From Botryllus schlosseri (Eukaryota): a stretch of 64,000 nt of DNA. Shown here one piece after another: positions 9,178 to 38,610 of the stretch (positions are counted from its first letter, which is position 1; each line of letters starts with the position of its first letter). The stretch covers positions 31,746,001 to 31,810,000 of the forward strand of contig CM119372.1 of the NCBI GenBank assembly GCA_051294905.1, written 5' to 3'. The translations under genes were made by a program, and so were the position numbers. Below the pieces are notes generated by a model. The model did no database searches and was not told the DNA's origin. It saw only the letters and a program-made list of their open reading frames with translations.

Positions 9178-9917
9178 GTTTAGACCACTGAAAACTACGC
9201 TAGTGAAAACCCTGTACTAGATGAAGGTGCATTGTAACGAATGTTCCTGTGAATAATGTACCAGAAATTTGTCCGCGCAAATACAAGAGCAAATGTCAGA
9301 TATTAGATTACGAACACGAACGTAGCTTATTCGTACGTAGCAATCTACAGGTAGGATACATCAACGACATTTTGGCGCTTGACATGTCGCCTTGAAAGAT
9401 ACCATTGCGTATCTGAATTGTACAGGTTTCTGTTTCACCTTGGTCATGTTTGATCAACAGTTTTGTATGCCAATTTTTCATTGAATCTTCAATAAATCTG
9501 ATGATGATCGGATTCATTTTGTACATACGCATTGTTTTCAGTATCCATGTGTGAGGGACTGAATCGAAAGCTTTTTTGTAGTCTATCCATGCCATGCTGA
9601 GGTTAGTGTGTCTCCTCTTCCAGTTTTCAAGAATGGTTTTGTCAAGGAGCAGGTGGTTCTTACAGCCAAGGGCGCCTTCCTTGGATCCTTTCTGCTGAGG
9701 CGGAAGAAGGTTTTCTAGGTGCTTGTAGCTTCGTTTCGCCAGGATTTTGGTCAGTGTTTTTTACATGGCTGTCAGGCATGTTATCTGCCTGTAGTTCTTG
9801 AGATCCCTGGTGTTTTCATTTTTTGGAATAAGATAGGTGATCCCTTCTGTGAACCAGGCTGGGATCTCGTGCGAGTTGGTTGAGGATAAAAGCTCGTTGT
9901 AGGTCGCCGCTAGGTAA

Positions 9918-19642: not shown

Positions 19643-20035
19643 AGTAGTAGTATAGATCGCTCGTGATGTGGCAGGGGCTCTTATGGGCGGGGTGGTGACG
19701 CGCCTGAAAACCGGGGGTGGTGATGCGCCTTTTTAGACCCCCCTTGCGGCGGTGATGCGCCATGTGTTCTTATGGGTGCGGTCGTGATTCGCCTTTTCGG
19801 GTATAGGCTGCGGCGGTGACGCGCCTGAAAACCCGGGGTGGTGACTTGCCTTTTTTGCTATAGGCGGTGGCGGTGATGCGCCATGTATTCTTACGCGATA
19901 TGTGGTGACTCGCCATGTGTTCTTATGGGTGCGGTCGTGATTCGCACTTTCAACCATCTCTCGCGCGGTGTTGAATAGTCACCAACAATAACCGCACAAA
20001 CGGAAACGTGGCTTGCAAGAGGATTAAGCAGTGCG
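19643..20035 (+). repeat. Left terminal inverted repeat (about 393 bp), GC-rich, with about 10 GGTGAYGCGCC-like iterons
   Basis: Reverse complement of 49965-50539; one mismatch seen in the outer ~225 bp. Confidence 0.95.
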
Positions 20036-21670
20036 ACCTATATTCCGAATGACCTGCGCGCTGAATTGTTGCCCATACAGCTGTGTGCTACTATCGATTA
20101 TTACACTAGACCAGTCAGTGTGAAATAGTTTGATCGTAAATTATGATATATGATGTCGTAGTTTAGTCGTGTCAAATGACCGATCGTGTTCTCTTTCCTC
20201 GCTATTGATTGCTACCTGAATAATACTTTCGGCTTATTCGCTGTTTCGCACCTACAGAATAGTCTGCTGTTCACAGTCGCAACAAGAATCACAAGTATAC
20301 ACATTATACATTCATTTATTACTCTGAAATCAAACTCTTCACAAAAGCACGTACAATCGTATCATTCACTTTTTTATCATCGCCAAAATTATCCAAGTAT
20401 TCCTCGGTTGAAAACCCTTGAGCTCTTTTTATCAAGAATGCGATAGCATGATCTCCACACACATCCGAAGTTTTACTCTGTAACTGTTTGCCAGTCACAG
20501 AAAATTCATCTGGCTCCAGGAATTGGAATATCTGAGGTTTTAGTGGTCCGAAACCTAGTGAATCATGAAAATGAGTATCAACGTGTCAATTTGTCAACTT
20601 GAAATGAAACTTACTACACAGCTCAAGTTGATTCGTATCTGAATGTGTTAATTCGGTACAATTCTAATTATTTTGAGAAATCTTTTCGTGATCTTTTGAC
20701 TCGACCAAAACCCGAATATTACTGACGCCGACTTTCAGCCACATCGAATTATTCGCACATTCCGCGCCGCTGTTGTCACACTTATAGAATCAATACCAAC
20801 TATAATTCTACAAGAATCAAGAATCACAAGTATGTACAGTTATTGTCTTTATCAACATGAAATCAAACTCCTAACAAAAACACGCATCTTATCACTAGTC
20901 AACTCTATCATGAAAATCCTCGAGTCCTTATCATCAAAAATGTTATAGCGCGGCGTCGGAATCCATTCGTGGGATGTACTAAAGGTAAATCCAGATAATC
21001 CAAAATGAAATATTTGGACTTTGACATAGTCTGAATTGAAATATATTGACAAACATGACTACCAACTTTGATCCAGTCACATTTCAAGATCATACTTTGA
21101 AACAATCCTTGAAACTTACAACTCTATTCACGACTGAGTTTTCCGTTTATCAGTTTCAGTAAATACTATCGCGATATTTTAATGTGTTACTACACACAAT
21201 AGAATCAATCAATGAAATAACACCTGTTGTAAATATTTCTAACTTGACAACCACTTGTGCATACCGCGATCAAGTTGCGACGCGATGAGTTAAATCGGGA
21301 TATTTCAATCTATTTGTCGAAACCTTGAACAAACTATCAGGTTATTTTTTGTTGTAATCAAGTGAACGGAAATAGTATTACGTCTCAACATTTTAACATC
21401 TGGAACAAGTGCAGTATATGCCCGCTTCACTCGTGTGTATACTTGACGTCATTCATCATGATTCCCCATGATCATTTAATTCAATCGCCCTCTTCTATCA
21501 CTTAAACCTTTTTTCTTCTTATTCTCTCGTTTTTCCGCACGAGCTTAAAAAATGCTGACTCAGCATTTTTTCTAGTTACGAGGTTTCAGTTTTTTCCGTT
21601 TACTCCCATTTTAGGAATTTTGTCCGTTTGCCCTTCCTATAATACTTATTTACACTCTGCCAAAAAAGCT

Positions 21671-22114
21671 TTACATCTTTTGTATGGCTGTGGGTGGTAT
21701 AGGGCCTTCGCACAACACCACTTCTTGTACGTTTTATTGCAGCAGTACGACTCCCTAATTCCTTATATCTGCTGCTTTCATGCAAATTACCACATTTCGC
21801 TTTTTTCTTATCTTCGTTATCGTTTTGGTCAAATGAATGAATCTCCTGTTCATTCGTTCAATGCCTGCGGACATTATCTGTTTTGCATTGTTTTTAGTCG
21901 TCATGTGGTACAATATCTCGTTGCCTTTATATTTACAGTGCGGAGGAGGCAACCCTTTTGTATGTCCATGGGCAGCCGCCAAACCATAGTTCGAGAATAT
22001 TACTCTATCTCACCTTTTCATGACGTTCTTGATTTCTTCAATTTTCATTTGCACCCCCATTTTCTTCTTATGACGCCGCAAATTCCTTTCCAGGGATGAT
22101 ATCTTTCCACCGAG
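21671..22114 (-). pseudogene. Tpt1/KptA-like RNA 2'-phosphotransferase domain with three in-frame stops
   Basis: One frame reads ...LRRHKKKMGVQMKIEEIKNVMKR*DRVIFSNYGLAAAHGHTKG...EILYHMTTKNNAKQIMSAGIERMNRRFIHLT...RNVVICM...RN*GVVLLQ*NVQEVVLCEGPIPPTAI. This follows the KptA motif order RAxxGHS, LYHGT, IxxxGLxxMxRxxVH, V.L...IPP..I. Confidence 0.7.
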
Positions 22115-22334
22115 TCATTACAAAGATCATGGAGACAATGAGACTCTTGAGTTCCGTCTTAACGCTTGGACTGGTCCCTTGTTGTGGTAACTTGGCCAGC
22201 CATTGGCCAATGTGAATCTCGTGATGAACGGGGTTTTGTTGTTGGTGGAGAGAGAGCGAGGTTCTTCGTTGTCAGCAGAGATTTCCTACCTATTCAATCT
22301 AACCTCTGATCTCGGCGTGTGCCCACGCCTACCG

Positions 22335-23087
22335 TCACGCCAACGGACTCAGTCGCCGCCGGGGCCCTGTTTCTGGGGAGACGTGCATCCTAAAATCCCC
22401 AGACTCCTCGTCGGACATGACCGGACGTATATCCGGTTGACCGGCAATAGCTGCTTTGTTTGAACCTTTTGGGACAGTAGTCATTACTGTGGCTGTCGTT
22501 ATGCATCTATGGGCCGAATTATTACAGGTATTCGGACAAGTGCACCCACGAGAGCATGCAGGACCAGTTTTCTCGTGCAGGTCCTCAATTTCGCCAGCGG
22601 GCATTGCACGCTCGACGTCAGCTGTAGCTGTCGCCATGCATCTATGGGCCGAAGTTCTGCAGTTCTTCGGACAAGTGCATCCGCGAGAGCCTTTGGGACC
22701 AGTTTTCTCGTGCAGGTCCTTTTTTACGCCAGCGGGCATTCCACGCTCGACGTCAGCTGTAGTGATCGCCATGCATCTATGGGCCGGATCTTCACAGTTA
22801 TCCGGACAAGTGCATCCGCGACAGTTTACAGGACCAGTTTTCTCGTGCAGGTCCTCAATTACGCCAGCGGGCATTCCACGCTCGACGTCTTCATTAACGG
22901 TGTCAGCAGGCATTCCTGTCCCGACACCAACAGTTTCCCATAGGTTCTGTGTGACATTAGTTGCGATTTTCAACTCGTCGTTCGCACCAGTGGTGATTAC
23001 CATCTCGGTACTTGCGCCAGCGGCAACGGCCAGCGGCGACGGCCAGCGTGCCGGCTCGACGCTTATTCGATTTGCAGCTTCCATCAA
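22335..23087 (-). CDS. 250-aa ORF with three 45-aa Cys/His-rich tandem repeats, in frame with the upstream protease-like segment
   Basis: 135-bp period (CTCGACGTC at 22611, 22746, 22881); each unit has the pattern HEKTGP..xRGCTCP..C...AHRC. Confidence 0.65.
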   Translation of the reverse strand: MMEAANRISVEPARWPSPLAVAAGASTEMVITTGANDELKIATNVTQNLWETVGVGTGMPADTVNEDVERGMPAGVIEDLHEKTGPVNCRGCTCPDNCEDPAHRCMAITTADVERGMPAGVKKDLHEKTGPKGSRGCTCPKNCRTSAHRCMATATADVERAMPAGEIEDLHEKTGPACSRGCTCPNTCNNSAHRCITTATVMTTVPKGSNKAAIAGQPDIRPVMSDEESGDFRMHVSPETGPRRRLSPLA

Positions 23088-23668
23088 CCCATCATCGGTT
23101 ACAGTGTCGCGAGGACTGCTTCCGACTTTGGGTACGTCCCGTTGATATTACGAGATCCCATCATGTAGCGTTACTCAAGACAACTCTTCATTTGCGTTAG
23201 ACGATGTTCTCAACCCAGTCCCTATGCTAGGTAAGTGCTGTACTTGATCAATCCATTTGAAACCAACGGTTGCAAATAGAACCGGTCGTCCGTCAAAGAC
23301 AATTATTACCAAGGAGCTAACGTGGGGGAGTCACCCATACCACATGTCTATGGGTATGGGTTGCCGCTCCTCCAAGCGTTGTGTGTGTTTGGTTTTGACG
23401 ACGTTCTTCAAATTGAGGACACATCCCGTGTCGGCCCAGATTTTCCTACCTGTTGTTGTATCAACTAAATACAAAAGTTGGCCGCCGAACCATTCCGTAA
23501 AATCTGGCTACAAAGGGTCATCTGGTGTATCAAGAAATGTAAATAGGGGCAGGGAATCATTATGTACAGTTTTTGTGTGTTGGGGTAATAAATTATCTGG
23601 GAGCTGATTTACCGGATCAATCAGCTCCCGCGAGCGATTTTCGAGAGTCGAATACTTTGCTTCAGTTC
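23088..23668 (-). pseudogene. Retroviral-type aspartic protease remnant, in the -1 frame relative to the Gag-like ORF
   Basis: Reads RKIWADTGCVLNL (DTG codons at 23424-23432)...IPIDMWYG*...VIIVFDGRPVLFATV...LPSIGTGL. Four in-frame stops at 23508, 23331, 23175 and 23148. Confidence 0.55.
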
Positions 23669-25450
23669 ATCATCCGTCCAATATGAAGTATCATATCGAA
23701 GTGGATGATCAGGGTATTGAGGTTCTGTCCAAGCCACTTGACTATTACCTCGGGATGAGTGTGCAAGCGGTAAAGATGGCTTTGTGTCACGCATATCCTT
23801 TGTTTCCAGGTTCTTAGGGCGCGTCTCTTGTTCATCCAGAAACTCGGAGTTCCAAACAAGTTGTAGCTCCTCCGCAACGTCCCGCCAGGTTTTCTCTTCT
23901 TCCCAGCCTCGCAACATCAATCTAAGCGCTTCTGGTAGTCGCTGCCGTAGATTTCGGAAAAGACGTAATCCATCCGGATTTTTCTTAATTTTACTATCCA
24001 TGTCTATTTCCAGTTGCTTCAAGGCGCTATTCAGCAGGGGTAGCGGCTCATCCTCCCAGCGATAATTTCTACGGAAATCCCCAATAATCTTTTCATCATT
24101 TACCAAACCCTGGGGATTGGATAAGGAAAGAGATTGCATCACCGATTCCCATTCTGCTTCCCCAGAATTGGTATTAAAAAAATTTCCAAGTTGGGTAGCA
24201 TGCTTGTGTCTGCCAGCCGCTCGCAATTTCTTCTGCATCGCATTAGCCAAAATAACATCCACATCCGTATTTCCGGGACCGTGGCGTATTCGTCGCATTG
24301 AATTCTCCATCCATTTTAGCAGTGGCATGTCTCCAGGGTCCATCATAAGCTGAAGCATTTCTTTTTCTGACTGGATTTTAGCCGACACATTGAGTAATGG
24401 GGCCGAAACACCAGAATACTCGTGTGGCTGTTGCTGCCGTTGTCGCCTAGTCCTTCCCCAATACTCTTTTGGAGTGGAGGTAGCGCGAGGTGTATTAGGA
24501 GAACGAGAGCTATCGGAAAGTTCCTCATCGAGAGATTCTTCCGTGGAATCCTCAGAGCTTGCACCGCCCCGTAGGGACCTTATATTATCTCTTATTTCTT
24601 GGGAAATCTGTTTCAGTCTAGCATGGAAATCGATTTCAGAACTTTCTGCATCAGATTGTTCCTCGCCTGGACTATGAAAGGTCACCCGTCGGGAAGCGCC
24701 GTCCGCATTTATACGGGATTCTGTCTCCGAATTTCGGCGTTCTTGCCAACCCTGATATCCCCTATATTTACTCGAGGAACTTTTTGCAGGTTCCGTCCTT
24801 GTTCCCCCCGTTGCTGGGTTTCCATCTTTTTGTTTGGCGCGTGCACCACTGCCCACATGGAAACATGGAGTCGTCCCTATTCGAGAGTCTGGCAATGAGG
24901 TCGAATCAGAACGTGGTAGCTTAGGATAGACGGCCGTTACAGTATGACAATCCAGACCCTTGCGAACCGTCATCGTTGGTCCTTGTTGTACGTTACTAGA
25001 CTGCTGCTCAACGAGAGGAACGTAAGCCGGAGGGTCATATTCTGGTGCAGTTGGAGCTACTGTCAAAACGGGAGATTGGATGCTATCTCGTGTAGCCTGT
25101 GCATGCGACTTTCCGAGCTCAAATTCTGACGTAAGGATGTCATTCAGCACGTCGGTGGAGACCTTCCCGCTAACTTTTGTTGTGGCATCGCAAACAGCTT
25201 TGAGGTCCGCTTGAGCTTTTCGAACCTCTTTCTTTGCCTTTTCTAACCCTTTCATGGTCTCCGGTAGAGCTGTCTTTACTTCTTTTAATAGCTCCGTTTG
25301 TTCAGCCACATCTTTAGCAAGTTGTCTTTCTTGTCGCCGTACATCTTCATGGCGTTTTTGTGTTGCTTTAAGCAAGGTAATGCCCTGTTTAAGTTCATTT
25401 GTCGCTTCTGACGACCTTTTCCTTTTAAATGCTTTCAATATTCTTCGCAT
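23621..25450 (-). CDS. 609-aa Gag-like protein: N-terminal coiled coil, PTAP/PPxY late motifs, Ser-rich linker, helical C-terminal domain
   Basis: Long intact ORF; PTAPEYDPPAY at 25022-25054; position directly upstream of a DTG protease-like frame. No CCHC knuckle. The Gag identity is an inference. Confidence 0.6.
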   Translation of the reverse strand: MRRILKAFKRKRSSEATNELKQGITLLKATQKRHEDVRRQERQLAKDVAEQTELLKEVKTALPETMKGLEKAKKEVRKAQADLKAVCDATTKVSGKVSTDVLNDILTSEFELGKSHAQATRDSIQSPVLTVAPTAPEYDPPAYVPLVEQQSSNVQQGPTMTVRKGLDCHTVTAVYPKLPRSDSTSLPDSRIGTTPCFHVGSGARAKQKDGNPATGGTRTEPAKSSSSKYRGYQGWQERRNSETESRINADGASRRVTFHSPGEEQSDAESSEIDFHARLKQISQEIRDNIRSLRGGASSEDSTEESLDEELSDSSRSPNTPRATSTPKEYWGRTRRQRQQQPHEYSGVSAPLLNVSAKIQSEKEMLQLMMDPGDMPLLKWMENSMRRIRHGPGNTDVDVILANAMQKKLRAAGRHKHATQLGNFFNTNSGEAEWESVMQSLSLSNPQGLVNDEKIIGDFRRNYRWEDEPLPLLNSALKQLEIDMDSKIKKNPDGLRLFRNLRQRLPEALRLMLRGWEEEKTWRDVAEELQLVWNSEFLDEQETRPKNLETKDMRDTKPSLPLAHSSRGNSQVAWTEPQYPDHPLRYDTSYWTDDELKQSIRLSKIARGS

Positions 25451-25458
25451 AGTACTCT

Positions 25459-25827
25459 CTATTGACTAGAGGAAGTACTGTTGACAAATATTAGATCAGG
25501 CAAGGATGCGTTGAAAAAGACTGTAGGTCCTGGCGGCGTATTCGTGGCTTTGACGTAAGCAGTGGGTTCGCTGCTATTTGATCCCAAAAATACGTTCAAC
25601 AGATTAGAAAACGCTCCAGGCGATACGTGCAGATAAATTGCTGCCAATATTATCAGGAGAGATACAGACGAGGAAAGCAAGGATACAACAAGTACAAGTT
25701 TTACGATGGTCGTCTTTGAAAGCATCGATCGGTCAACGTCTGAACACCGGAAGTATGCCCCGTACTGGCCACCAATTTTGTTTTTATAGTGCAGCTCCAC
25801 AACGATTGTTATGCGAGTAGTCCACAC
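25459..25827 (-). CDS. Putative small single-pass membrane protein
   Basis: Hydrophobic run IVKLVLVVSLLSSSVSLLIILAAIYL followed by NSS, NAS and NST sequons; stops 8 nt before the Gag-like ATG. Confidence 0.4.
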   Translation of the reverse strand: MWTTRITIVVELHYKNKIGGQYGAYFRCSDVDRSMLSKTTIVKLVLVVSLLSSSVSLLIILAAIYLHVSPGAFSNLLNVFLGSNSSEPTAYVKATNTPPGPTVFFNASLPDLIFVNSTSSSQ

Positions 25828-25996
25828 TTGTTCGGGATACTTCGTAGGACAAAGTTGACACTATTTGCTCTCTTGTGTAGTACTGACGACGTTCGTAGAT
25901 CTGTAGATGTTGATTTGAGATTTTTCAAAGTCGTAAATGTTGATTGAAGTATTCCGTAGTTGTAATATTGTCTTGTTTCCAAACAGCCAATGACCA

Positions 25997-26302
25997 TTAG
26001 GTCCAAAGTTCTAAGCTAGCCCTCGATACAAGTAATCTGAAACCCTTAATACAACCAAATACTCCAATCATTATCAACCAATTATGGACACAAATATAGG
26101 GCGCTTCTATAAATATCGTCCCGTACGGGTCTATCAGAATACGAGTAAAAGCTAGGCCTATAAATATGTCATGCATGATTGATAACTTTTCAATACTCCA
26201 AGGTTGGTTTACACATATAAATGTGAAGGCCTTTCCTGCCTCGACACACAAGCATATGCAATATACAAGAAACATGCCAATAGATGTTACAAAAAAATAC
26301 AC
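25997..26302 (-). CDS. Putative small multi-pass membrane protein
   Basis: Three hydrophobic segments; overlaps the next co-oriented ORF (25809-26006). Confidence 0.3.
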   Translation of the reverse strand: MYFFVTSIGMFLVYCICLCVEAGKAFTFICVNQPWSIEKLSIMHDIFIGLAFTRILIDPYGTIFIEAPYICVHNWLIMIGVFGCIKGFRLLVSRASLELWT

Positions 26303-27010
26303 TCAGAGTTCAAGTTGACCAACTTGCAGACTCGTGTATTATAAGAGTTCTCCAGTCTTCCAGCTGCAGGTATCGAACCGAAATCAGTCCAGAAAGCGAC
26401 CCCTTGTTGAGTACTTTACGTCATAAAGTACTTTCGTGTCGATTCGGGGATCAGGCATTCCAACAGTAGGCGGCGTTTGTTGAGGGTTCGTCGTAGGCAG
26501 AGATTCCGAATGCAATATCTCTATACTCTTGGCTCTTTTCATCTTTAGTTCATCGAATTCATGGAGCTATTCCAGCACATTTCATTTGGCTTTTCCATTA
26601 CTGTATACTTGTAACTTCGGCTAGCAGTCAATCCCATTTTATTGCACTGCTTTATTTCTGTATACTTTGCAACTGTGGCAAGCAGCCGATCCAATCATTA
26701 TAAGGTCAAGAGCTTCCAGGGGTACATGCGAACATCACCCTTCAATGCCGAAAGACTTTAGTACCTCCCGCAATCAATCGTCAATATACTGTTTTGTGGA
26801 TATAGTATGATACTGGATGCTTCGTTTTGGGCTGTGTTTCGAGAGTGCTGGACTGCTGGTGGCTTTACATTGGTAGAGCCAGAAATTAGCCAACACTAGA
26901 GGACACATTCACGATGTCTGCATTGGTAGTCATTGGATATTACAACTGAATGTACAATTCATGTGGGCACCATACATGGCATGGATATGCAATATGCACA
27001 CACACATATA

Positions 27011-27217
27011 TTACATATACTTCAGCTCACTGCAAAAGTTCGCATACATGGAAAAATGATGGCGCCATTTTCGGTAAAGCAACCTGATGGTAAAGCTAAC
27101 TACTAACATGCATACGACAATTCCAGATAAGCACAAAGTGCTATCAACACAGCGGCCAAATGTACAAAGCATATTCGACTGTTCATTCATTAACCCATGC
27201 GCAAATTCGAAATACAA
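27011..27217 (-). CDS. Putative small membrane protein
   Basis: LCLSGIVVCMLVVSFTI followed by a basic RLLYRKWR stop-transfer-like segment. Confidence 0.25.
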   Translation of the reverse strand: MYFEFAHGLMNEQSNMLCTFGRCVDSTLCLSGIVVCMLVVSFTIRLLYRKWRHHFSMYANFCSELKYM

Positions 27218-27947
27218 AATGGCGGCATTTTTGTTAACTCAACACGATAGTGAGTATCGGCAATTATAGAGTTCGAACACGCTCTGCAAATTTAGCGTTG
27301 ACGCAATCGATCTCATGAATCGAAAGCGTGAACCCTTGGACTCAATTTTCGACACATCAATTTCGCAAAAAAGATGTGTGTACTTTTCTATTGTATATAA
27401 GAATTTTATTTTAATTTTATTGAGAGTGATTTAGGGTGATTGTATCAGTTGCTTATGCAACGGCAATTCATCTTACTATTGACTCATATGGGCAGTCAGG
27501 TGACTACAAAAGTCACCGCTAATCTTTTCAGTTACTACGGCTTTATTCATAATCTAACATTATGATGCCTTACCTTAACAATTTGAAGGGACAATGTAGG
27601 CATTCTCTGAAATATAAGATTTGCAGTGCCTAGGTCAGAGCTTAAATCTACGACCTTTTACGGTGTTTAGCTGCAATCCATGAAGTGCGGATTTATGCGT
27701 ATGAAAACCGGTGACACTGCGATTCGAGTATGCAAAGGCACGAACTAACACTGGCGTTTCCACGCTACGACGTGAAATTCATCAGAAAATAATCTCAGGA
27801 ATACATGGTAGCACTAAATGGACACATTTGTGTAACACAATAGTCACCGAATGACCTCGGTGCTCCGCGAGCACTTGGATACATTGCGATTATCGCAATA
27901 CAGACTCCTCGGATGCATTGCCGTCCAGTTTAAAATTGTATTAAACT

Positions 27948-28687
27948 TTACCGGAATAGTAGCCTATAGCGGCGACGGGGTTCAGATATAGGTTTGAATA
28001 TATTTTCAGTTCGAGTCGCTATTTGTTCTTCCTTAAGATTTTTAAATATTGCCATCCCGTAAAGTTTATTATGACGTCCTACCGACCAACTAGCAAATAT
28101 CAAATTATCCTCATCTGCTCGTTGGCATGACGTTATCGATAGGTACGTCTCTTTACTGATTGTATCGTTCATTTGTTGCATCATGTGTCGTCTTATGAGT
28201 TCGTACATTATTATACGAGCGTTCACTTTTTGTCGAGAGTCGATTTCATACAATATAACGCTTGTGATAAGTTTTCATCTCGTATGCCACTGATAGTCTT
28301 TTCTATATTCCAAAGACTTGTGGTACAGAAGGTGACCCCATTTTGTTCTCAATTTTACTTACATATAAGTAAATACACGACATTTAAAGCGCGATATGAG
28401 AAAATAACATTGACGTCTATTTCAGCTCAGTGCCCCTACATTAATTTAATCAAAAGATGCCTAGCGCAAAACTCATGTAAATCTTTGTTATCTATATCAA
28501 TGAATACGTATAACTAAAACTGCCTCCAGCAATTGTTCCATCATTTCGATTATTTCGGAGGGATCAATTGATTGAGACAGCTCCCGTCACACAGATTTAG
28601 GTACCATGCCCATATTTTCTTTAAAATTAGCAATGCTTCACCTAAGGGAGCTTTAAGAATGGTACCAATACTATAGTCAAGAGTCAT
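27948..28687 (-). pseudogene. Decayed coding-like segment of unknown function
   Basis: ATG at 28687, protein-like stretches broken by stops, then a 101-aa ORF in another frame; co-oriented with the cassette. Confidence 0.25.
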
Positions 28688-31600
28688 AGTAGCTTAAAAA
28701 CATTGAAGTGGATCAATCACTTTGCGTCTTGAGCGTAATTGTTATTATTCAACTATTATCCGGCTCGCAGCGTAATATGAGTTTGACAGTACAGGAAGCT
28801 ACCTGTGCGATTCGTCCTCGTTGTGGCAAACGCTTGTTGTTGAATTACTTTGCCGCAATGTTTAAGTTTGGACCGACGAGGTGAGTTGTATGTAGAAGCA
28901 TAGCTAATTTTTTGAACTTACAAGTTAGTGTTTCTCAACCGGGATAAACGTAATTCTTGGGATATACCAGAATTTGCAAAGGGTGTACCTTTCCAATGGG
29001 ATATATAGAGATGTACCAGACCCGGATTACCCTGAGCCGACGGACAGCTGTCACCAAGGTTGGTATATGTACAATGTTGTCTCAAATGTAATACTGTATT
29101 CCGCTTAGTTGCGATGTCACAAGTAAATCGTCAGCCTAACCCAATGGTCTAGTTAGATGTTGCAAAGTACATACAGTTAGAAGACATGTTTCAAGCTAGT
29201 CATTTATGCGATAGCTCAGATTTCCTGAAGCGGTATTCCCTGCCTGACGTAAATAAATGCCGTAATGTAGTGAATGCAGCAATTGAAGTGACGCAGCCAG
29301 TCAAGATTAAAATAACTTCCATATTGACATTGAAATGTGTTTGGTTTAGACTGCCGATTTCTTAATCCAGTATTACGTCATGTATCTGAAATTAATTTTT
29401 CGTTATCATTGAGGCAAATTAATGACAATAGACTGTGTACAGCGGTCCACAATATGAGGTTATTGACACTATTCTCGCAGCTCAAGTGCAATCCTGGACT
29501 TGCGCGTGGTGCAGTGCAAGTATGATATCAGAATTGTCAAGTCGTCTAATTTCACTAAATTAGAGCGAAACGCAAGTGGTCTAATTCTGATCCAATTGAT
29601 TAATTAGTTATCCGCGGCCAACCGCTATAGCATGTGTCAGTGTAGCGCCAAAGTCACTTCTGCTAGTACGGAAAAGTATTGTCGAGCATGTGCGAATAGA
29701 TTATTCCGACAATAGAAACAACAATATGAAACCAAAATTAATTTCATTATTTCGTCGCGATCTTTTAAACTCACATATCAAGTCGCCGAGCGCGCATGAC
29801 CAGCGTTTGCGTGAGCCCTGGTTACTAAAAAACAAGGCAAGTTTAGTATACAGATCATACTCTTTATAGCGACATGCTCCGTGTGCAATATTTGTCATTA
29901 AATCCGACTGCCTCGCATTTCCTAAGGCTCATTTTAATTTTACGGACAAAGTTATTAGCGTCCATCTTGAATTAGTACTGAGTATTTAGGATTTATTTTT
30001 GTATAGGATAAGTGTCAGTGAAGCGGGTGAATATTCAGTAATTTAATTTCATATCATAGTTATAAATACAGCGTTGATTTTCTCTCTCCCCTTTATAGGA
30101 AAGTGAGCATCAGTTTCTTTGTACTGTAATTTTCCTAGACGTCGTTTTATTTAAAATGTGACCCTATATCTTATATATCCAGTTGTTTTAGCCAAAGTAA
30201 CCACTTCTATTTATTCAAATGTGACATTAAATGTATCAGGAGAATAAGAATAGACACTTGTTACCGATACCGATCAGATCATCGAATCATAGATGTTTGT
30301 ATTTTCGAGAAAAGTTGCCATTTGTTATTTCACAGTTCATAGCATCATGCAAGCATAGCTACTTTATTTAATACTAGAACCGGGAAGACATCACTCCGCT
30401 TCACTGATTCAACGACCCTGGCAATTTCAACGCAACAATGCCGGCGATTCAGTTGGTGAGGCAGAATTGTATTATCCGTTTTCATCACCGTGTCTAACAC
30501 ACTCCGGGTTTGTTGTCTTAGTGCACCATGCCATTTGGAAAATAATCTAGGGTTAGCTAACCTGTGTAGGCTAGCTATATGTAATCAAACAGTATAGAGT
30601 TGATTCTGTCACGCCCCACAAGTGAACCCATTAAAAGTTATGTTACATTTTCGGTTGCAAGAAAGCACCTGATTGGTTATCATTGATATATTATATTCTA
30701 CCCAGATAATATTCATCTCCTATTTCAACCTCCTTTGTGCTATGACGTCACATTAGAACAATACGATGTAGAGAACTTATATCATAGCAGTACCGCATCC
30801 TTTACAAGCAGCGCAGTACTGCAGATGGAATAGTATAGTAAAACGGTGGTTATAATCTTGTGACGTTAACTATTGGGCCGGACGATTTCTCGTGCTGGGT
30901 CGGGTCCAGCCACTGGTCTATCACTATGTGGCGTGGGATTGTATAACTAATAACATCACATATTAACGAGGGTTTTAATATCTTCGGTCAATTACCAAGC
31001 TGACAATGAACTGCTATAGTTGTTGTCTTAACCTATTCACTTCCTATCCACTACTAGTTTCCATATGTTAAACTTTAGGTCAAATTAAAACAACCATCAT
31101 TATTGTCCGTATTGTAGATTTTACTCAAAGTAATTACAGTATCAATTCATAGACTCTCTGCGATATTCTAATGTCTTTTCATCGATTTCTTCCATTCAAC
31201 TGTGTTATGATGTTATATATCCTATTTCGTCGTATACTAATGCCCTTATCCAACCTTCATATAATAGTAAATGTCTTGATGATGTTGTTTATAAGCTTTG
31301 ATCAACTTGTCATCAACTTTAGTCAAATTCTTTTCAACTCCTGTCAACCTCGTAGCCAAATCATGCCTTTCAGCTCTGTAGAGTGAACTGAATTTTCTGG
31401 CCTTATCCTTCGAGTTATATTCAGTTTTGGGCGGAAGGTCGTTGACGTGCATGCATCCACCCCCATCACCACGAGCAATTTGCTATTTTCGTAAAGTAGG
31501 GGCTGACGTACATCCGAACATTCATCAAGCAAATTTTTGTCGCTATCCTTCGAACTACGGCATGATTAGGCCCCCAATTACAGTCAAATTTCACCCTTTT

Positions 31601-33120
31601 TCTGCAGTTAATTATTTCCTGTGCACCAATTTTCCACTGCAGCGTTTCCTTTCCCACCATTATTTATGGCCTTATTGTGCATGAGTTTTGCAATGGTGTG
31701 ATCAACCCCCCAATTGGGGTCGTATTTTGCCGTTTCTGCTAAATTTTATATTTTCCTGTGCGTCAACACGCCACTATAACATTTACATTCCCACAGTCAT
31801 TTATAATTGCTCTTTGCAAAAATCACACCATCTGCTTCCAAATTTTGCAAAATAATGCATTACACAATCCTAATTTGGTTTAGAAAGCACAATCCGAAAT
31901 TTTCTCAGTTACATCAATTATTTCTTCTCTTGTTATGCAATTCGTAGTTTTGCTAGTTATGTAATTCTTAATTTTACTTATTACGCAATTCACATTTTTT
32001 TTTTCTGCAAGCCGCAATCTTCGGCCAGTTCGTGCGAATTAAATTTACTTTCCACAGACTTAACCAGGGCCGAAGTCAAAAAATCTTCTCTATTTTTAAA
32101 AACCCGATGTTAGACTTGTAACAATCACTGTTAACTCCCTAGCGCCCGAAACTACTAAAACCTACTTCATTCAAAACGTGGTTTTTCGTGTATATAGTGC
32201 AGTCATCATCATATGTGTAAGATTTTGACTCACAATATCGCTCTTTCACACATTATTAGTCAATCCAAGTTCTGCAAGTTAGCGGAAAACACCCCTGTTT
32301 GAGGCAAGTTGTCCGCAGAATCTGTCATGAGGTTTAGTAACTTTTCAAAGGGTCGTAACGAGGTTAGAACCTGGGTATCTTCATCCACGTTATTATCGCC
32401 AATGAAAGATGGCGGATAACAAACTGGTGGGCTCGACAGCAGTAGTTACCCTCGGAAGGTTAGGTGATTGAACCTTTCCTTGCTACGTAACATTTAGGTA
32501 CAACATGTTTCATAAAGCCATTTCTGCCGAGCACCATAATACAATACCAATTACCAAGGTAGATTAATTAAGTAATTGTGTTGTTATTTATCTGTTCCAA
32601 TATTCGAAGATAAATTTATATTTAGACTTAGATAAATTCAGATGATAATTACATTTTTTCGCGGCCGCAAAACTTCAACGTGACAGAATTCACTATGCCA
32701 CGACGCAATCGCACGCCTACACTGTCTCTGTGTCCCATAATTTTGACAAGTTATGCCAAGTACAACAACCTTTTTATTCAGTTATTTCAGAATGTGCATT
32801 TTTCTCGTGCCAGGCGTAAATGTTGCTATAGTAGGCCTACATAGTACACTCATAATGTGTGTGGAATCTGCGCAGTCCAAATTCAAAATAGGGTCGACAC
32901 CACGCAGATTAATTCTAGTTATTGTTATTGTAAAACCATGTACTTTTTTGCCTAAACTGCAAAGGGTAAGTTGTTGAGAGTTCGCATTCTACCATTTTGA
33001 GCTATATTACTTTATGGCCTTTCAACAGAATACCTATTCATAACTGCCTGCACCGCACAAGAGATTTCCGGTAATTTTTGTGGAAACCGGTAACACGCAA
33101 ACCTAAAAGTTTCACTTTAA

Positions 33121-33191
33121 CTCTTTCCACGCCGAGCTAAATTTGAAGACAATCTCTAGCGAACATATGGGGATACGCGGCGTCGAAAGAG
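33121..33191. mobile_element. 71-bp TTAA-flanked mini-MITE (piggyBac-like)
   Basis: TIR CTCTTTCCACGCCG / CGGCGTCGAAAGAG (1 mismatch); TTAA at 33117-33120 and 33192-33195. Confidence 0.7.
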
Positions 33192-34512
33192 TTAATTCAA
33201 TTATTGATCTTACGCGCAGTCGTGACTGGTGCTATGTACATATTGTTTTGTTACTGACATATGTCAGAATTACCACTCTTATTTGTGTACTCGAATGCAC
33301 GATGTAGCGCGCTGTATAATGCAATTTACTTATACTAAACTAAAGCCGCGAAACAAGCGGTATTCACTTCGTGTCGTTAGACAACAGTAGTTGTAAAAAC
33401 CAAATAGACAGAGGTGTTGGAAAATCAACTTACCCGACACAAAAACCTACCTACTGGTTCCGAAATATCTAATGCAAATTGTGATGCGGTATGCACGCAT
33501 AACCACCTGCATTCATGCAGCTTACAACACCGACCATGATAACAATTTAGAGTTGCTGTTAATACTTTTGTGCCACAGCTATTCACTCGCTAGCCAATAG
33601 TTAGAATTCACGAGTTAATGATAAAGCAATAAGTTACCGAATGTTTGGGGGACTAGTTTGGTAGACATTGGTGGGGTTACTTCTTAGTCACTGGGGCAAT
33701 TAAATTAACGACCATTACTTCAGCGGGCCTTTCAACATTTTTCTATTTATTAGCATATTCGTCAAGCAAAGTCCGCTACAACAGATATATTTTCCTTGAG
33801 CATTCAAAGCTAGTGTTTTCCGTAACTTTGTGGCTTGTTACATCACGCAATTCTACATTATAATGTCAGCTAATTTCAATTTGGATTCAAAAGTGCACAT
33901 TCACACTGTGTGCGTTCACCTTTGACCAAAAGTGATCGTCATACTGTGTTGTGAACACACACGTCTTCATAGATATGCCATTCCAACAACGTGCATATTG
34001 CGTAGCTTTGCACTGAATGCTTAATATGTTGCGATGTGGCAAATGGAGGTTTCAGAGCCTGCATAATTGAAAATAATATCGCTCAGACAGTAGACGGACA
34101 TAAAATTAACACCAACAATCTCCCCCACCTTCAAGAAATACGATTATTAATTCATTAGTTCAATTATTACGTCTTTTTTATTGACGATTTTGATTTGCTC
34201 TGCAAAGCAATAGCCGTTACTTACGTTTACTGGTTATTACGACGAGTGACACCCCTAATATATTTTCTAGTACTGTTTTTGCAGTACTTGGACAAACTCG
34301 ATATTCTCAGCCCTTTGTTATGTGCCGTGGTCGTTGCGAACCGTATTATTATTATCATTATTTGGTCCCTGGTCTAATCGTTGCAAATATTATGTTCGCA
34401 GTTGGCGTCCAGCTCTCCGTCACGTCGTTTCGGCCCAATGTTGTTGGAACATTCTGGCCATCTCCTGACGAAATGAATCTGGTTAATTTGGTACTTACCT
34501 TCCGACCTTTAT

Positions 34513-35010
34513 CTAGGGTATGGTAGTCCGCCCTGGTGCTAAAGTGTTTCTTGCTTGTGACGTAGTTGTTCGTTTCGATTTTCTGGCCACTTGTATTGTG
34601 TCAGGCACTTCGTCATGGTGTTGAGTTGTTGTTACGAGACGATTGATTACACGGATTGGTCGCGTATAGGGCTCAGTGTCGAACGTATTGCGCACCCGCG
34701 GTTTTAATACTGTACTCGACATTCTACGTAGCTCGGTCAGAACCGGGGTATTAATTTGGGATGATTTCATTCTACCTGAACTGAGCGGTCCAGACGATGG
34801 AACCGCGGCCGGAACCATGATCGCTACAATAACACCGCTTGTGGCTCGAATATTGACGTTTGGTCTGTTTCGATCAGGTGTCTCCTTGGAAATGCTTGTG
34901 GTGTTTATTCGTGTGACATTTGTGTACTGCCCCTGACGGACCAAGCATAGTACAGTGTATGTCCTTCTTTGACGGCCTGCGTAGATCTGCGTAGGCAAAC
35001 AGCACAACAT
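34513..35010 (-). CDS. Arg/Thr/Ser-rich hypothetical ORF near the right end of the cargo element
   Basis: 165-aa ORF with a TATA-like ATATAAATAG about 100 nt upstream on the minus strand (about 35106-35115). Confidence 0.3.
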   Translation of the reverse strand: MLCCLPTQIYAGRQRRTYTVLCLVRQGQYTNVTRINTTSISKETPDRNRPNVNIRATSGVIVAIMVPAAVPSSGPLSSGRMKSSQINTPVLTELRRMSSTVLKPRVRNTFDTEPYTRPIRVINRLVTTTQHHDEVPDTIQVARKSKRTTTSQARNTLAPGRTTIP

Positions 35011-35282
35011 GTGTGGACTATCAGATCCCTACCGCCATGTGCGGGGCTAACGTCGTTTTTCTCGACAACTCATAACTATACGATTCTCTCCTATTTGATC
35101 CCGTGCTATTTATATGGCAGGGTTATTTTTTTCACTTGTTCCTGACCAGACCTAGTGCTTTTTTCACCCTCATTTCAATGTACATGTAAAACACTTACTA
35201 TCCTACAACACACCCATTTTATGGTGTAACAACTATTGCCGCCTAGACCTCCGGGCACTTATTTCACAAGTACCTAACATCT

Positions 35283-38200
35283 TCCCATACACAAAATAGT
35301 AAAATACAAAAAAAAAACCTTGTCAAGTCAATCCGTTTGTAACTTACCCAACCAAAGCATAAAGTATCCTTATGAAAAGTAGACAAGACTACGTGAGTAA
35401 TCACCACAATCCAAAATCCATAGCAAGTTCGGTTGTATTCATAGTCCACCAACTCGTATTTTTATTCCACTGTAAAAGTCGTTACTATTCCGCAAGACAA
35501 AGAAATTACTATGTGGTATATTTTGTAAGACAAAAGTAATTACTTCTCAGTGTCGGCGACTTGAGATTAACATAATATGTTTGAGTATACGAGATTTGAC
35601 AGTCTGACCATCGTAGTTGAGAATTCATTTCTTACAATCGAACACAGGTGTTATATCAAAAATTATCATGATGTAAACATAAGGATTGACACATTGATTT
35701 GACATATGAGATTTTGTAATAGTTGATCAATACTTTATTATTAAATTATTTGCGTTAATTAGACCCGACGTTGTGGTAAATGTTATGACAGCAACAAACT
35801 TTTCAGTACCAATGTTATTAACATATTAAGCTGTAAAACTATGTATGTCTGAAATGTTCTTGATAGGAAAATTACTCCACCTTGGTAAAAATCACTATGC
35901 GTATCGCGGATATCAGAAAATATTTCCAGTAACCAAGACTAAAGATGAAACGACAATTTCGTTTGCTGATTAACAACCGGTACAATACTTTATCATCATA
36001 ATCCGCGGTGAGAATTGAAACAATTTCGCGCATTACCCGGTGTCAAGATATCACACTAGGTGAATTGACATACCACCGCTTGAATAATACCTAATCCGTT
36101 CGCACCATTTCACATACTTTGATCATTACAAAAGTAAATTGTTATATGTTTGTTAGATGCATCCAATTCAGTTAGAAATGTCTGGTGCACAACAATCGTA
36201 ATATCAAGAAAGTACTTGCTACACTGTTATTTGCTAAACGTGTTTTGCATTGTTGTTCATTTGTAGTATTGATTGAAATTGTTCTTGAACCCTCAAATAA
36301 TAATTCCTGACATGAAACCAAGCCGCTGAAAGTCGTTACCATCACGAAGATACAATGTGTACGATGTTTGTCAAATGTGTCCTACCTGGCCAACAGAAAA
36401 CAATTTTCACTCACTCGAAATGAAACCAATGTGACGGTCTCCATTCGATATTTTGTTTGTGTCAAATACTTTGCAATGAACACATTTGCGTGGTTGAGCT
36501 TTACATCATCAAGCTGTTATTTGTAAATCAAGATTTCGGTAAACTTGTAAATGTATCGTTTAACTAACCGACATTTAGTGATTGGGGAACATACCAGACG
36601 ATACACATCCATCTCCGAAATACTGCATTGATCTTAATTTCCATCATCGTGATAATCGAAGTACATTTCTTTCGAATCCGTAACAACCGACTATGACATG
36701 ATAAATTTTTTTGACAAGTTATGCTTAGAAGATTGGTTGCATATCGCGAAAAAAATAATATACCACTCATATTGATACTGTTACTCCATTGATCGATATT
36801 TTCAAACGAGTAAAATTTATTACTTGAGTTTCCCCGCTTAATGTAAATGAAAACTCAACCGTCTTTTAACATCACAAAGACATTGATAAAAAGTAGGCAA
36901 TCAAACACAACACTTTGTACGACACTAATTATTGTTCCACACATCTCATTTCATACTAAGTGTATACGAAAGATATTCATGACACATGAAAATATTCCCA
37001 TGCTACAAACCTGTACAATGATTGGTGGTGCTTTCAAACTGTTTCGATATCACAAGAACTTTATTGTCGGAATGGGTGTTCATGTATCTTAATAATCAAA
37101 TAGTTCAACACAGAACTAGTACGAACAGAAACATCAGAGTTGTTTACACAAAAGTTTGTATGCGTGCAGTATGCGAATACCATGTGTAAGTCGAGCACAA
37201 TTGCGGTATCCATCCGAGTTTAGTAACACAAATTTATTACAACGAGCCACGTAAACTTTCGTGAAAGAAAAGCATACTCACTTCCAGAGGGTTATGTCAA
37301 CGCCATAGCAGTACCCCAACAAGAAAGTACATATGTTTTCTAGTCACGGTCCTTACATCTTTCACATAGATCAATCTACTTTGCTAACGAAAAGTGCTGA
37401 GTCATCACATGATTGCCCTCACAACAAAACAGCTAGAAGATATTATCATACAAAAATATTACTAACCCTTTGCGCACCAGTGACAAATCATACAACAAAC
37501 ATTTTTTGTGAGTCGAATTGTTGTTCAGTGTCAAGTCTACCTGTTGAAACGTACATTAAAACAACACAGTCACAATTCAATTAAAACCACGGATCTATTT
37601 TCATTTCGTCACATACAGAAAAATAAATTTTCTTTCCCCAACACATACTTGTAACCAATCGCTTTCATTAAACACACAACTCCATAAAAGTATTTACTTT
37701 CTACAACACAGACATTCCGATGTAGTCAAGAAATATTTTTATTAATCAAAATCATCGATTTCTGTTCACGGCGTTAGTGTGTGCATTTCATACCTGTGGG
37801 TCCCGTATTAAAATGGACACGACACGACTGAATGAAAGGGGGGTAGAAGTCTATCACATCGATTTACATGTGGTCTTCGCTACGGTTTCAAAAAACGAAT
37901 CATCTATTTTGCATTGGTCGAGACCGAGCGAACCAGTTACATGTATTCGCGGTAATGATTTTGCTTGTCATATGCGAATGATAGGGTTACTGTCAAATCT
38001 ACATACAACAACCTTCTGGCACTCATAATAGCAATTTCATTTTCCGCCGCTTCGTAACTGTATACCCCCAACTCGGCTTTTTTGTTCATCGACAGCTGCG
38101 TTTAACAAGACCAACGACACTGAACCCACGACGTTTACCTATGTAAAGTTACCACTTTCACTTGGCAGTCCGTCGTTTACCTGGCTAAACATATCATTTT

Positions 38201-38610
38201 CACTTGGAAATCTATTTTTTCCCAGAGTAAGAAACCTTTTTCACTTGGAAATTTATTTTTTCCCTGGGTAACAAACCTTTTTCACTTGGAAATCTATTTT
38301 TCCCTGGGTAACAAACCTTTTTCACTTGGAAATATATTTTTCCCCGGGTAACAAACCTTTTTCGCTTGGAAATCTATTTTTCCCTGGGTTACAAACCTTT
38401 TTCACTTGGAAATATATTTTTCCCCGGGTAACAAACCTTTTTCCCTGAGCAACAAACCATTTTCACTTGGTGGTCCGTCGTTTACCCGAGTAAAAATATC
38501 ATTTTCCTTTGGGGATCTGGCGTTTACCCAGTGTAACAATACATCAATACATTTTCTCTTGGTCATCTAGCTTTTCCTAGAGTAACAAAACCATTTTCAT
38601 TTTGAAATCT
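35283..38610 (+). repeat. Inner part of the left palindrome arm
   Basis: Reverse complement of 38815-39460 plus 45569-48240. ORF 36847..37092(+) and ORF 46415..46639(-) are near-identical. Confidence 0.95.
38198..38470 (+). repeat. ~41-bp tandem array (about 6 good copies plus degenerate flanking units)
   Basis: Unit TTTCACTTGGAAATCTATTTTTCCCTGGGTAACAAACCTT. Confidence 0.95.

Follow-up and report, generated by a model that had tools for sequence, protein, structure and literature searches.

A decayed Tpt1/KptA-like domain in Botryllus schlosseri: probable C-terminal end of an integrase-less Pol protein in a giant Merlin-type element

The element copy in the window and its Tpt1/KptA-like remnant

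The stretch of Botryllus schlosseri DNA analysed here (64,000 nucleotides of contig CM119372.1, called the window for simplicity) contains on its minus strand a complete but internally deleted copy of a transposable element, near the 3' end of which lies the remnant of a domain of the RNA 2'-phosphotransferase family Tpt1/KptA (Table 1). Read in the orientation of the element, this remnant is preceded by a Gag-like open reading frame (ORF1), the remnant of a retropepsin at the start of a second frame (ORF2) and a linker containing tandem repeats. The 5' part of the copy is decayed, much deleted and interrupted by foreign DNA, and the ORF listing contained no intact or informative frame between 25758 and 35252.

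For profile searches, the minus strand of window positions 21662-22144 was translated in one frame with stop codons written as X. The motifs quoted in a preliminary description of the locus (AAAHGHT, LYHMT, IMSAGIERMNRRFIHL, VVICM and EVVLCEGPIPPTAI) were all recovered in this peptide, which includes the residues from RNLRRHKKK to IQKM, together with the three internal stops (TGA, TAG and TAA, all within 21671-22114); a fourth stop directly behind IQKM is the natural stop codon of intact relatives. The assignment to Tpt1/KptA, until then based on motifs, was borne out by a match to the Pfam family PTS_2-RNA (PF01885) of 45.8 bits (E = 8.9e-12, cut-off 26 bits) over profile positions 38-177 of 177, and by a match to the solved Tpt1/KptA chain 8tfi at E = 8e-8, well outside what chance would produce. 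The closest sibling of the remnant lies on another chromosome (C1), is 97% identical and has a comparable load of stop codons.

The gag-protease cassette upstream of the domain also proved to be real. The ORF at 23621-25465 is 55% identical to unnamed Gag-like proteins of 928-976 aa, one of them with a CCHC knuckle, and its alignment to a full copy revealed an internal deletion of about 1 kb that took the proline-rich part and the CCHC knuckle. The translation of 23331-23507, LLYLVDTTTGRKIWADTGCVLNL, matches the retropepsin motif of intact copies.

What did not hold was the claim that the domain occupies the position of reverse transcriptase (RT). In intact copies the order is protease-RT-RNase H-Tpt1-like, and the window shows gag-protease followed by Tpt1 because a 1.8-kb deletion common to six loci removed RT and RNase H. 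Compared to a full copy, three stretches are absent from the window copy (full-copy positions 19744-20163, 20829-21843 in ORF1 and 23250-25039 in ORF2). With the third stretch ORF2 lost RT and RNase H, and the Tpt1-like domain lost its beginning, which contains the HCRH motif. The short N-lobe that had been noted is thus genuine, since the deletion breakpoint cut the start of the domain. The same breakpoint was found in six of 13 loci examined (L001, L002, L003, L004, L007 and L009), and the flanking DNA differs in all six. Hence, the 'gag-protease-Tpt1' layout is an amplified, non-autonomous deletion derivative and not an element with Tpt1 in place of RT. The RT-less 13.9-kb derivative was still copied to new sites, which points to mobilisation in trans. 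The window copy itself, with three stops and with the Arg-His pair of the N-lobe, RT and RNase H all lost, is dead.

Intact gag-pol relatives and the domain at the end of Pol

In the 495-Mb genome from which the window comes, a six-frame search with the Tpt1-like domain yielded 129 matches, 52 of which lie at the end of an open frame of at least 1000 aa with the order protease-RT-RNase H-Tpt1-like. Intact copies fused in a Pol polyprotein, which the preliminary description had envisaged, therefore exist. Nine diverged families, whose Tpt1-like parts are 32% to 83% identical, were retrieved for comparison. In eight of them a Gag-like ORF1 of 804-999 aa is followed by an ORF2 of 1067-1244 aa in the -1 frame. 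The ninth and most divergent family, L029 (G000:C3:28673000-28682999, minus strand), has a single ORF2 of 1195 aa that runs from RVP through G-patch, RT and RNase H to the Tpt1-like domain, and no intact ORF1 of at least 200 aa was present upstream within the 10 kb fetched; downstream of its ORF2 lie two ORFs without a Pfam match, one of 235 aa and one of at least 600 aa that reaches the end of the locus.

Five intact ORF2s were scanned with Pfam, and all five contained RVT_1, RT_RNaseH and PTS_2-RNA, the last at 27.7-43.3 bits (E = 5.5e-11 to 3.4e-6); RVP and G-patch were detected in one of the five. Conserved blocks follow each other in the same order in all nine families, namely FLADTGS...GIGG, a linker, LLDLKKAYFH with YIDDIF, RNase H and the Tpt1-like domain, which extends to the stop codon. 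The linker is variable and contains between one and three 135-nt repeats depending on the family; the repeats (L021:4318-4585 and window 22487-22889) encode a Cys/His-rich unit, C-x-C-P-x-N-C ... A-H-R-C. A slippery heptamer in the appropriate phase near the gag stop is the arrangement of retroviral gag-pol frameshifting, and in seven of the eight families with both frames AAAAAAC stands in X XXY YYZ phase 12-18 nt ahead of the ORF1 stop. The best solved match of RT was chain 8r0s ('Enzymatic polyprotein', presumably caulimoviral; E = 1e-18), followed by the RTs of Ty3 and foamy virus.

ORF1 of the intact relatives comprises a coiled coil, a probable capsid-like domain and a CCHC knuckle, the last detected at E = 5e-4 with 20.5 bits, which is slightly below the Pfam cut-off of 20.8. 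A model of the conserved central part (predicted local distance difference test score, pLDDT, 82.0) gave no match at E ≤ 0.001 with Foldseek. With VIA-align, 17 of the 20 top rows were retroelement capsid domains (MOAP1, copia, PEG10, foamy virus, Ty1-derived Drt2, HIV-1, MLV, RSV, PNMA2 and Arc) at Z values of only 5.4-6.6, which can be common among helical proteins. This result is supportive of, and not decisive for, a capsid-like fold of this domain.

The Tpt1-like domain itself was modelled with AlphaFold2 from 11 sequences (pLDDT 81.8). In a Foldseek search against the PDB the first 21 listed matches were all Tpt1/KptA (E = 3e-11 to 2e-3, TM-score up to 0.77, root-mean-square deviation of about 3 Å over about 180 columns), at sequence identities of 18-25%; the mouse and human TRPT1 structures, at about 20% identity, ranked under archaeal ones. 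According to the model, the domain has the full two-lobe Tpt1 fold, with a winged-helix RNA lobe and an ADP-ribosyltransferase-type NAD lobe. Selection was assessed by codon-based Nei-Gojobori ratios of nonsynonymous to synonymous substitution (dN/dS), using pairs with unsaturated dS only. The Tpt1-like domain, with a dN/dS of 0.12-0.21 (RT and RNase H, 0.015-0.065; N-terminal part of ORF2, 0.19-0.37), is under purifying selection; in the same pairs its amino acid identity was 46-83% versus 81-99% for RT and RNase H.

Taken alone, the layout of the window copy, and nothing else, would be in line with a host TRPT1 retrocopy lying by chance beside a gag-protease fragment. This reading is ruled out for practical purposes by the 129 genome copies, by the 52 long Pol frames that end in the domain, by its in-frame position behind RNase H in nine families and by the deletion breakpoint shared among loci, which explains the window layout; the low identity to the mammalian TRPT1 structures, which rank below archaeal ones, speaks in the same direction. 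The domain is therefore encoded by the element, as the preliminary description held, on the strength of the Pol-frame fusion in intact relatives and of purifying selection.

Since the Tpt1-like domain follows RNase H in intact copies, it occupies the place of the integrase and not that of RT. With Pfam, an rve integrase was found neither in the five ORF2s nor in another 15 ORFs from the 25.8 kb of carrier sequence examined. Of 1389 genomic rve candidates 150 were scored, and none of these 150 lay inside 18 paired copies of the element. Long terminal repeats (LTRs) or other direct terminal repeats were absent from the 10-kb loci, from 28-kb stretches of three copies and from the whole window copy, and no terminal repeats of the LTR, DIRS or Ngaro type were found. 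RNA-seq depth over gag-pol was about 0-1 across most of ORF1-ORF2, with most reads fitting only partially (two bulk runs, about 6% of each); two contig-type runs span the gag-pol stretch but may be DNA.

Relatives outside this genome were searched in several collections. When 1.84 billion representative proteins were scanned with the domain by HMMER, only 38 matches reached E ≤ 0.001, the best of which were fragments or RT-RNase H-Tpt1 fusions (P0008, P0010, P0013, P0023 and P0031); from about E = 1e-6 onward the list consisted mostly of ordinary proteins of about 180 aa. The closest relatives of the RT-RNase H part were P0010 (52% identity), P0044 (43%, a cluster of 215 members) and P0045 (42%), all with a Tpt1-like end and no rve listed in their records; P0044 and P0045 start with the FLADTGS protease, as the genome copies do. 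The next RT-RNase H matches were at 25% identity to retrotransposon-type Pol proteins, most of them with rve. A word-indexed search with the Tpt1-like region alone gave no match among proteins of 662-2109 aa, the IMG/VR scan found no relative and the ESM Atlas no usable match. The JGI metagenome scan returned 66 loci, none of them close (best-segment identity of 21-45%, in most cases 21-31%), which were presumed to be stand-alone microbial KptA and left unused.

Ends, size and genes of the Merlin-type carrier

Homology between copies extends at least 18 kb upstream of ORF1, and gag-pol constitutes only the last 7.3 kb of the element, 280 nt from a Merlin-type terminus. At 29 of the 36 loci L001-L036, representing 24 distinct copies, a 22-nt 3' terminus recurs with at most four substitutions and unrelated flanks. 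This end is sharp (...GGGCATATACTGCACTAGTTCC), is followed by 23 different flanks in the 24 distinct copies and has no A-run. The 5' end (GGTACTTGTGAAATAAGTGCCC...) matches the reverse complement of the 3' end at 16 of 22 positions, forming an imperfect terminal inverted repeat (TIR), and both ends begin with GG. Searching the genome for the first 21 nt with up to two mismatches identified 46 such 5' ends, compared to 10 hits of a reversed control pattern at up to three mismatches; the 5' terminus of the window copy was found in this way at C2:31781254-31781274 (window 35254-35274). Perfect 8-bp target-site duplications (TSDs) flank six out of six copies tested, and in five of these the 5' junction was predicted from the 3' flank and found there. 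Besides the copies listed in Table 1, about 12 further 5' ends have a Tpt1 match 37-46 kb downstream of them, on the same strand.

According to the accessible part of a published account (PMC8101967), the Merlin superfamily, present in ascidians, is characterised by duplications of 8-9 bp, a terminal 5'-GG-3' and a DDE_Tnp_IS1595 transposase, and TIRs of 24-462 bp are described for it. The carrier is an element of 38-48 kb with a Merlin/IS1595-type DDE transposase, GG-ended TIRs and 8-bp target duplications. LINE-like copying, which would leave a poly(A) tail and variable 5' truncation, was rejected, as the 3' end is sharp and without an A-run and the seemingly truncated copies are full-length copies with variant or deleted interiors.

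The 25.8 kb read in three copies contain 17 ORFs of at least 150 aa, all on the gag-pol strand and none of them interrupted. In addition to the putative transposase, they include genes of cellular type, namely for a leucine-rich-repeat protein, an inhibitor-of-apoptosis protein (IAP) and a ubiquitin-conjugating E2. A DDE ORF is also present in the divergent family L026, whose ORF2 is 62% identical; here it lies directly behind pol and overlaps the pol end (DDE_Tnp_IS1595, E = 6.9e-15), and it shares 37% identity with the DDE ORF of the carrier (E = 1e-73). The presence of this homologous ORF next to pol in L026 means that transposase and gag-pol are linked in two lineages with differing gene order.

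The carrier is complete for cut-and-paste, with a DDE transposase, inverted termini and target duplications, and its gag-pol might be a mere passenger. In this view an old retrotransposon, its LTRs and integrase gone, became caught at the end of a Merlin-type DNA transposon and is carried along with no contribution of its own. Derivatives without RT are still copied, and almost no RNA-seq reads cover gag-pol (a weak test), as would be the case for a passenger. We nevertheless consider this explanation distinctly improbable. Gag-pol is under strong purifying selection between subfamilies (particularly in RT and RNase H), the frameshift site is kept in seven of eight families, and the DDE gene is linked to gag-pol in both lineages despite their different gene order. 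Moreover, all ORFs of the 25.8 kb are uninterrupted and point in the direction of gag-pol, and the closest external RT relatives likewise have no integrase.

The anatomy of the element, with a Gag-like ORF1, a -1 frameshift and an ORF2 of about 1150-1250 aa encoding retropepsin, RT, RNase H and the Tpt1-like domain without an integrase, embedded in a transposon of 38-48 kb, can be put forward with high confidence.

Table 1. Window features, element copies and carrier genes (window coordinates unless a locus is named; empty cells, no entry).
Feature	Location	Size	Strand	Basis or remark
Tpt1/KptA-like domain remnant	21671..22114		minus	3 internal stops, N-lobe truncated; PF01885 E 8.9e-12, PDB 8tfi E 8e-8
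1.8-kb deletion junction	22142..22183		minus	ORF2 residues ~453-1048 lost; alignment to full copy A jumps from 23250 to 25039
ORF2 linker between protease and RT	22335..23147		minus	three 135-nt tandem repeats at 22487-22889 encoding a Cys/His-rich motif
Retropepsin (aspartic protease) remnant, ORF2 start	23331..23507		minus	contains ADTG; compare FLADTGS...GIGG block of 9 families
Gag-like ORF1	23621..25465	614 aa	minus	55% identical to P0003, which has a CCHC knuckle
Decayed, much-deleted 5' part with foreign DNA inserted	25758..35252		minus	patchy homology to sibling and at least 9 other copies; ORF listing
Whole element copy, internally deleted, non-autonomous	21402..35274	13,873 bp	minus	homology to full and sibling copies stops at both coordinates
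3' TIR, ...GGGCATATACTGCACTTGTTCC (element orientation)	21402..21423		minus	recurrent 22-nt terminus with unrelated flanks
5' TIR, GGTACTTGTGAAATAAGTGCCC (element orientation)	35253..35274		minus	pattern search
TSD, 3' side, TAACATCT (plus strand)	21394..21401			identical 8 bases at 35275-35282
TSD, 5' side, TAACATCT (plus strand)	35275..35282			identical 8 bases at 21394-21401
Full-length copy A	C8	47,623 bp		TSD-verified
Full-length copy	C2	39,003 bp		TSD-verified
Full-length copy	C1	38,522 bp		TSD-verified
Full-length copy B	C4	40,062 bp		paired by position only
Full-length copy C	C1	40,347 bp		paired by position only
Full-length copy	C1, 5' end at 7.86 Mb	34,068 bp		paired by position only
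Deleted copy	C15	16,352 bp		TSD-verified
Deleted copy	window	13,873 bp		TSD-verified
Deleted copy, sibling of the window copy	C1	10,110 bp		TSD-verified
Putative DDE_Tnp_IS1595 transposase	full copy A	317 aa	gag-pol strand	Pfam E 3.1e-17
Leucine-rich-repeat protein	L040:215-1264	350 aa	minus	also in copies B and C, co-oriented with gag-pol
IAP, three BIR domains and RING	L037:3742-5481	580 aa	minus	also in copies B and C, co-oriented with gag-pol
Ubiquitin-conjugating E2	L037:1557-2039	161 aa	minus	also in copies B and C, co-oriented with gag-pol
Eleven ORFs without Pfam match above curated cut-off	25.8 kb read		gag-pol strand	Pfam; one has a weak PWP3A-B_C match below cut-off

Several further observations concern copies of the element. 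At L010/L011 (G000:C3:13560136-13568420), a tail-to-tail pair of copies is separated by about 5.8 kb and has mirror-image identical flanks, which corresponds to a large inverted duplication including the element ends. A copy at G000:C10:1250950-1273714 misses about 16.6 kb, so that the early part of the read region is joined to a point some 0.4 kb ahead of gag; this copy may have arisen by deletion or from a spliced form, and its 5' flank AAAAATTG is identical to that of the C1 sibling copy. With IAP and E2 genes in dozens of element copies, counts of host IAP and E2 genes could be inflated.

Other repeats share the window with the element. An apparently intact Ty3/gypsy-type retrotransposon occupies 54411-59879 (minus strand). 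It has frames for a Gag of 539 aa in which there are two zinc knuckles, for a protease (308 aa) and for RT-RNase H-integrase (1017 aa), and the Tpt1-bearing Pol shares only 21% identity with its Pol. Fragments that look like LINE-type elements, with endonuclease-like and RT-like ORFs, are found at 60585-62696 (plus strand) and 9308-9760 (minus strand), as judged by translation only. An inverted pair of another repeat family (35275-38608 and 45560-47999) adjoins the 5' end of the element, and this family forms inverted pairs elsewhere in the genome too. For 19679-19934 and 50413-50868, a 121-nt tandem repeat in the former stretch and two instances of a related ORF (EHMAHHRRKGGLKRRITTPGFQARHHP...), on opposite strands of the window, were noted.

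Active site of the Tpt1-like domain and proposed role

In the second step of the Tpt1 reaction, the phosphate is released as ADP-ribose cyclic phosphate. According to the accessible part of Banerjee et al. (2019, PMC6333775), Tpt1's Arg-His-Arg-Arg tetrad is essential, and the R64A mutation of the Runella enzyme slows step 2 by 210-fold. Across 11 aligned sequences Arg37, His38, His113, Thr115, Arg133 and His137 are invariant; they fall within H-C-R-H of the N-lobe (the Arg-His pair), within H-x-T of the NAD lobe and within R-x3-H of the RRFIHL motif. The canonical I-R-A-x-Q-G-H-S reads L-A-A-A-H-G-H-T here. The third tetrad residue is absent from all 16 RT-linked domains, i.e. the nine genome families and seven from public collections (P0008, P0010, P0013, P0023, P0031, P0044 and P0045), with Ala, Gly, Asn, Glu, Thr, Val or Met in its place, and none of the 16 has an Arg two residues downstream. 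Among eight stand-alone KptA-like proteins aligned, six have the third Arg; in the remaining two, Lys or Cys takes its place and an Arg follows two residues later. Of the tetrad, the initial Arg-His pair and the final Arg are invariant in the 11 aligned sequences. The preliminary description had taken the Ala in the window copy as a sign of doubtful catalysis in this copy. The Ala is indeed present, but as the Arg is absent clade-wide (9/9 genome families and 7/7 external relatives) it is a feature of the clade and not a defect of the window copy. In the N-lobe, H35, C41 and H49 (H-C-R-H-E-x-C...H-P-W, residues 35-50 of the 190-aa domain) are also invariant and have no counterpart in cellular Tpt1; judged from the alignment, they could together form a possible metal-binding site around the catalytic Arg-His pair.

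The pattern of lost and kept residues bears on what the domain might do. TRPT1 and its bacterial homologues ADP-ribosylate phosphorylated RNA ends, according to the accessible part of a published study (PMC6582358). As the clade is without the step-2 Arg and retains the other catalytic and NAD-site residues, ADP-ribose would be left on the phosphate rather than a 2'-phosphate being removed, so that the missing Arg favours a putative ADP-ribosyl 'capping' activity over true 2'-phosphate removal. In the proposed mechanism the domain would transfer ADP-ribose from NAD+ to a phosphate of nucleic acid belonging to the element, and the reaction would go no further. The target could be a terminal 5'-phosphate or a 2'-phosphate of RNA or cDNA, and the product would be a capped or marked end, unlike the clean 2'-OH left by cellular Tpt1, and a separate DDE transposase would perform the integration. 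This enzymatic reading is tentative. End-healing, capping or counter-defence, the functions proposed in the preliminary description, are possible roles of the domain.

A working RNA 2'-phosphotransferase would complete the repair of element RNA or host tRNA that had been cut by a defence nuclease and rejoined by a 5'-phosphate-type ligase, a counter-defence comparable to that of jumbo-phage KptA. The full Tpt1 fold agrees with such an activity, as do the three out of four tetrad residues and the NAD-lobe residues that are invariant, and KptA domains in polyproteins of a few animal RNA viruses, including a Botrylloides nidovirus, are read as RNA processing or repair modules in the accessible part of Iyer et al. 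(2022, PMC9503650). What makes it unlikely is that precisely the Arg whose mutation has the 210-fold effect on step 2 is missing from 16 of 16 RT-linked domains with no alternative Arg two residues downstream, and that neither an RNA ligase nor a 2H phosphoesterase was found among the 17 ORFs of the 25.8 kb examined.

Alternatively, the domain may be a non-catalytic module that binds nucleic acid or NAD, for example holding RNA or cDNA ends or docking the DDE transposase, at the place where the DNA-binding domains of an integrase would sit. Loss of a tetrad residue throughout the clade, a faster evolution than that of RT and RNase H and the location at the integrase position of a Ty3/gypsy-type Pol are in accord with this possibility. 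We give it a low probability, since the residues that are invariant are the remaining catalytic and NAD-site ones, which a plain scaffold would not be expected to keep.

Compared to cellular Tpt1/TRPT1/KptA (PF01885; PDB 8tfi, 9ld6, 6e3a and 7yw3), the element domain is alike in its two-lobe fold (TM-score up to 0.77), its score above the Pfam cut-off and its retention of the N-lobe Arg-His, the NAD-lobe His-x-Thr and Arg-x3-His-Leu. It differs in the missing third tetrad Arg, in having H-x-T instead of HGT, in a loop after HL that is about nine residues shorter and in its fusion behind RNase H in a Pol polyprotein, where the cellular enzyme stands alone. In eukaryotic viruses KptA is rare; the accessible part of Iyer et al. 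[quoted passage not shown] The element resembles the latter two in that a KptA/Tpt1 domain is part of the replicative polyprotein of an animal selfish element, and the host of the Botrylloides leachii nidovirus is a sea squirt (PMC9503650, in part). As far as the descriptions there allow a comparison, the viral carriers, including those with stand-alone KptA such as jumbo phages, are RNA or DNA viruses without an RT fusion.

The gag-pol shares with Ty3/gypsy-type (Metaviridae-like) and retroviral gag-pol a probably capsid-like Gag fold, the CCHC knuckle, the -1 frameshift, a DTG protease, a YIDD RT and an RNase H of the RT_RNaseH type. It differs in that ORF2 has no integrase, no LTRs were found and the whole is embedded in a TIR-bounded transposon; the drop of RT-RNase H identity to 25% marks a wide gap between the Tpt1-bearing clade and ordinary gypsy elements. 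Pol proteins with an additional enzyme domain are known, for example with dUTPase. Ordinary Merlin elements have one transposase gene. With Merlin/IS1595 elements the carrier has in common the DDE_Tnp_IS1595 transposase, the 8-bp target duplications and the inverted termini starting with 5'-GG, and it departs from them in its size of 38-48 kb, its at least 17 genes including gag-pol and its short, imperfect TIRs of about 22 nt (16/22), as compared to the 24-462 bp stated in the accessible part of PMC8101967.

Elements of this size are known from other groups. Terminons are giant Penelope-like RT elements with many co-oriented ORFs. Teratorn is a piggyBac transposon fused with a herpesvirus (accessible part of PMC10175614). 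Like these two, the carrier is a DDE transposon or RT element that has grown to tens of kilobases with many extra genes, but here a DDE cut-and-paste-type frame carries a retrovirus-like gag-pol, and neither Teratorn nor the Terminons join both parts. The accessible part of a review (PMC6431247) contains no case of a DDE transposon with a retrovirus-like gag-pol. The view that the arrangement had not been described is upheld as far as the literature searched, partly accessible and with most subscription journals and Repbase outside its scope, describes neither a retroelement with a Tpt1/KptA domain nor gag-pol in a Merlin-type element. Likewise, the combination of a Tpt1-tailed, integrase-less gag-pol inside a giant cut-and-paste-type transposon is not described there.

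Two modes of propagation fit different parts of these data. A replicon that passes through a single long RNA and is inserted by the DDE enzyme fits the uniform ORF orientation, the uninterrupted frames including those of cellular-type genes and the lack of an integrase. Cut-and-paste with gag-pol as cargo fits the TIRs, the target duplications and the amplified internal-deletion derivatives. The first mode leads to the bolder and, in our view, doubtful proposal of a hybrid replicon, in which the integrase and LTRs of a retrovirus-like gag-pol were swapped for a Merlin-type DDE transposase and a step-2-deficient Tpt1 ADP-ribosylates the RNA or cDNA ends of the element. If this were true, the ADP-ribose mark could protect these ends or ready them for the transposase, and the 17 co-oriented, uninterrupted ORFs including IAP, E2 and the leucine-rich-repeat protein would be the footprint of the passage through one long RNA.

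We favour the explanation that the window contains the broken C-terminal domain of a Pol protein from the gag-pol of a giant Merlin-type element, and that this domain in its intact form is likely ADP-ribosylating, to which as a whole we assign a probability of roughly 0.45. Several points weigh against it. The window copy itself cannot work, and the missing tetrad Arg could equally mean that catalysis was lost. An LTR, a primer-binding site and a polypurine tract were not found, and an integrase or other replication genes could lie in the 5' 14-22 kb of full copies, upstream of the stretch that was read. TIRs, target duplications and amplified internal-deletion derivatives are as expected of a plain cut-and-paste transposon. 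Finally, the full-length copies are mostly 90-97% identical, so that the intactness of the cargo genes may merely reflect their youth.

The context of the carrier is more unusual than the Tpt1 finding from which the analysis started, and the interest lies in the intact relatives and not in the dead window copy. What Tpt1/KptA does beyond tRNA splicing in fungi and plants has long been a puzzle. In the present case, a clade of selfish elements keeps under selection a version of Tpt1 without the Arg that finishes the phosphotransferase reaction, which would make it a natural 'step-arrest' enzyme and could reveal an in vivo use of nucleic-acid ADP-ribosylation. An integrase-less, retrovirus-like Pol on a giant Merlin-ended transposon with its own DDE gene blurs the border between two classes of transposable elements, and the element offers a concrete system for studying the exchange of integration modules.

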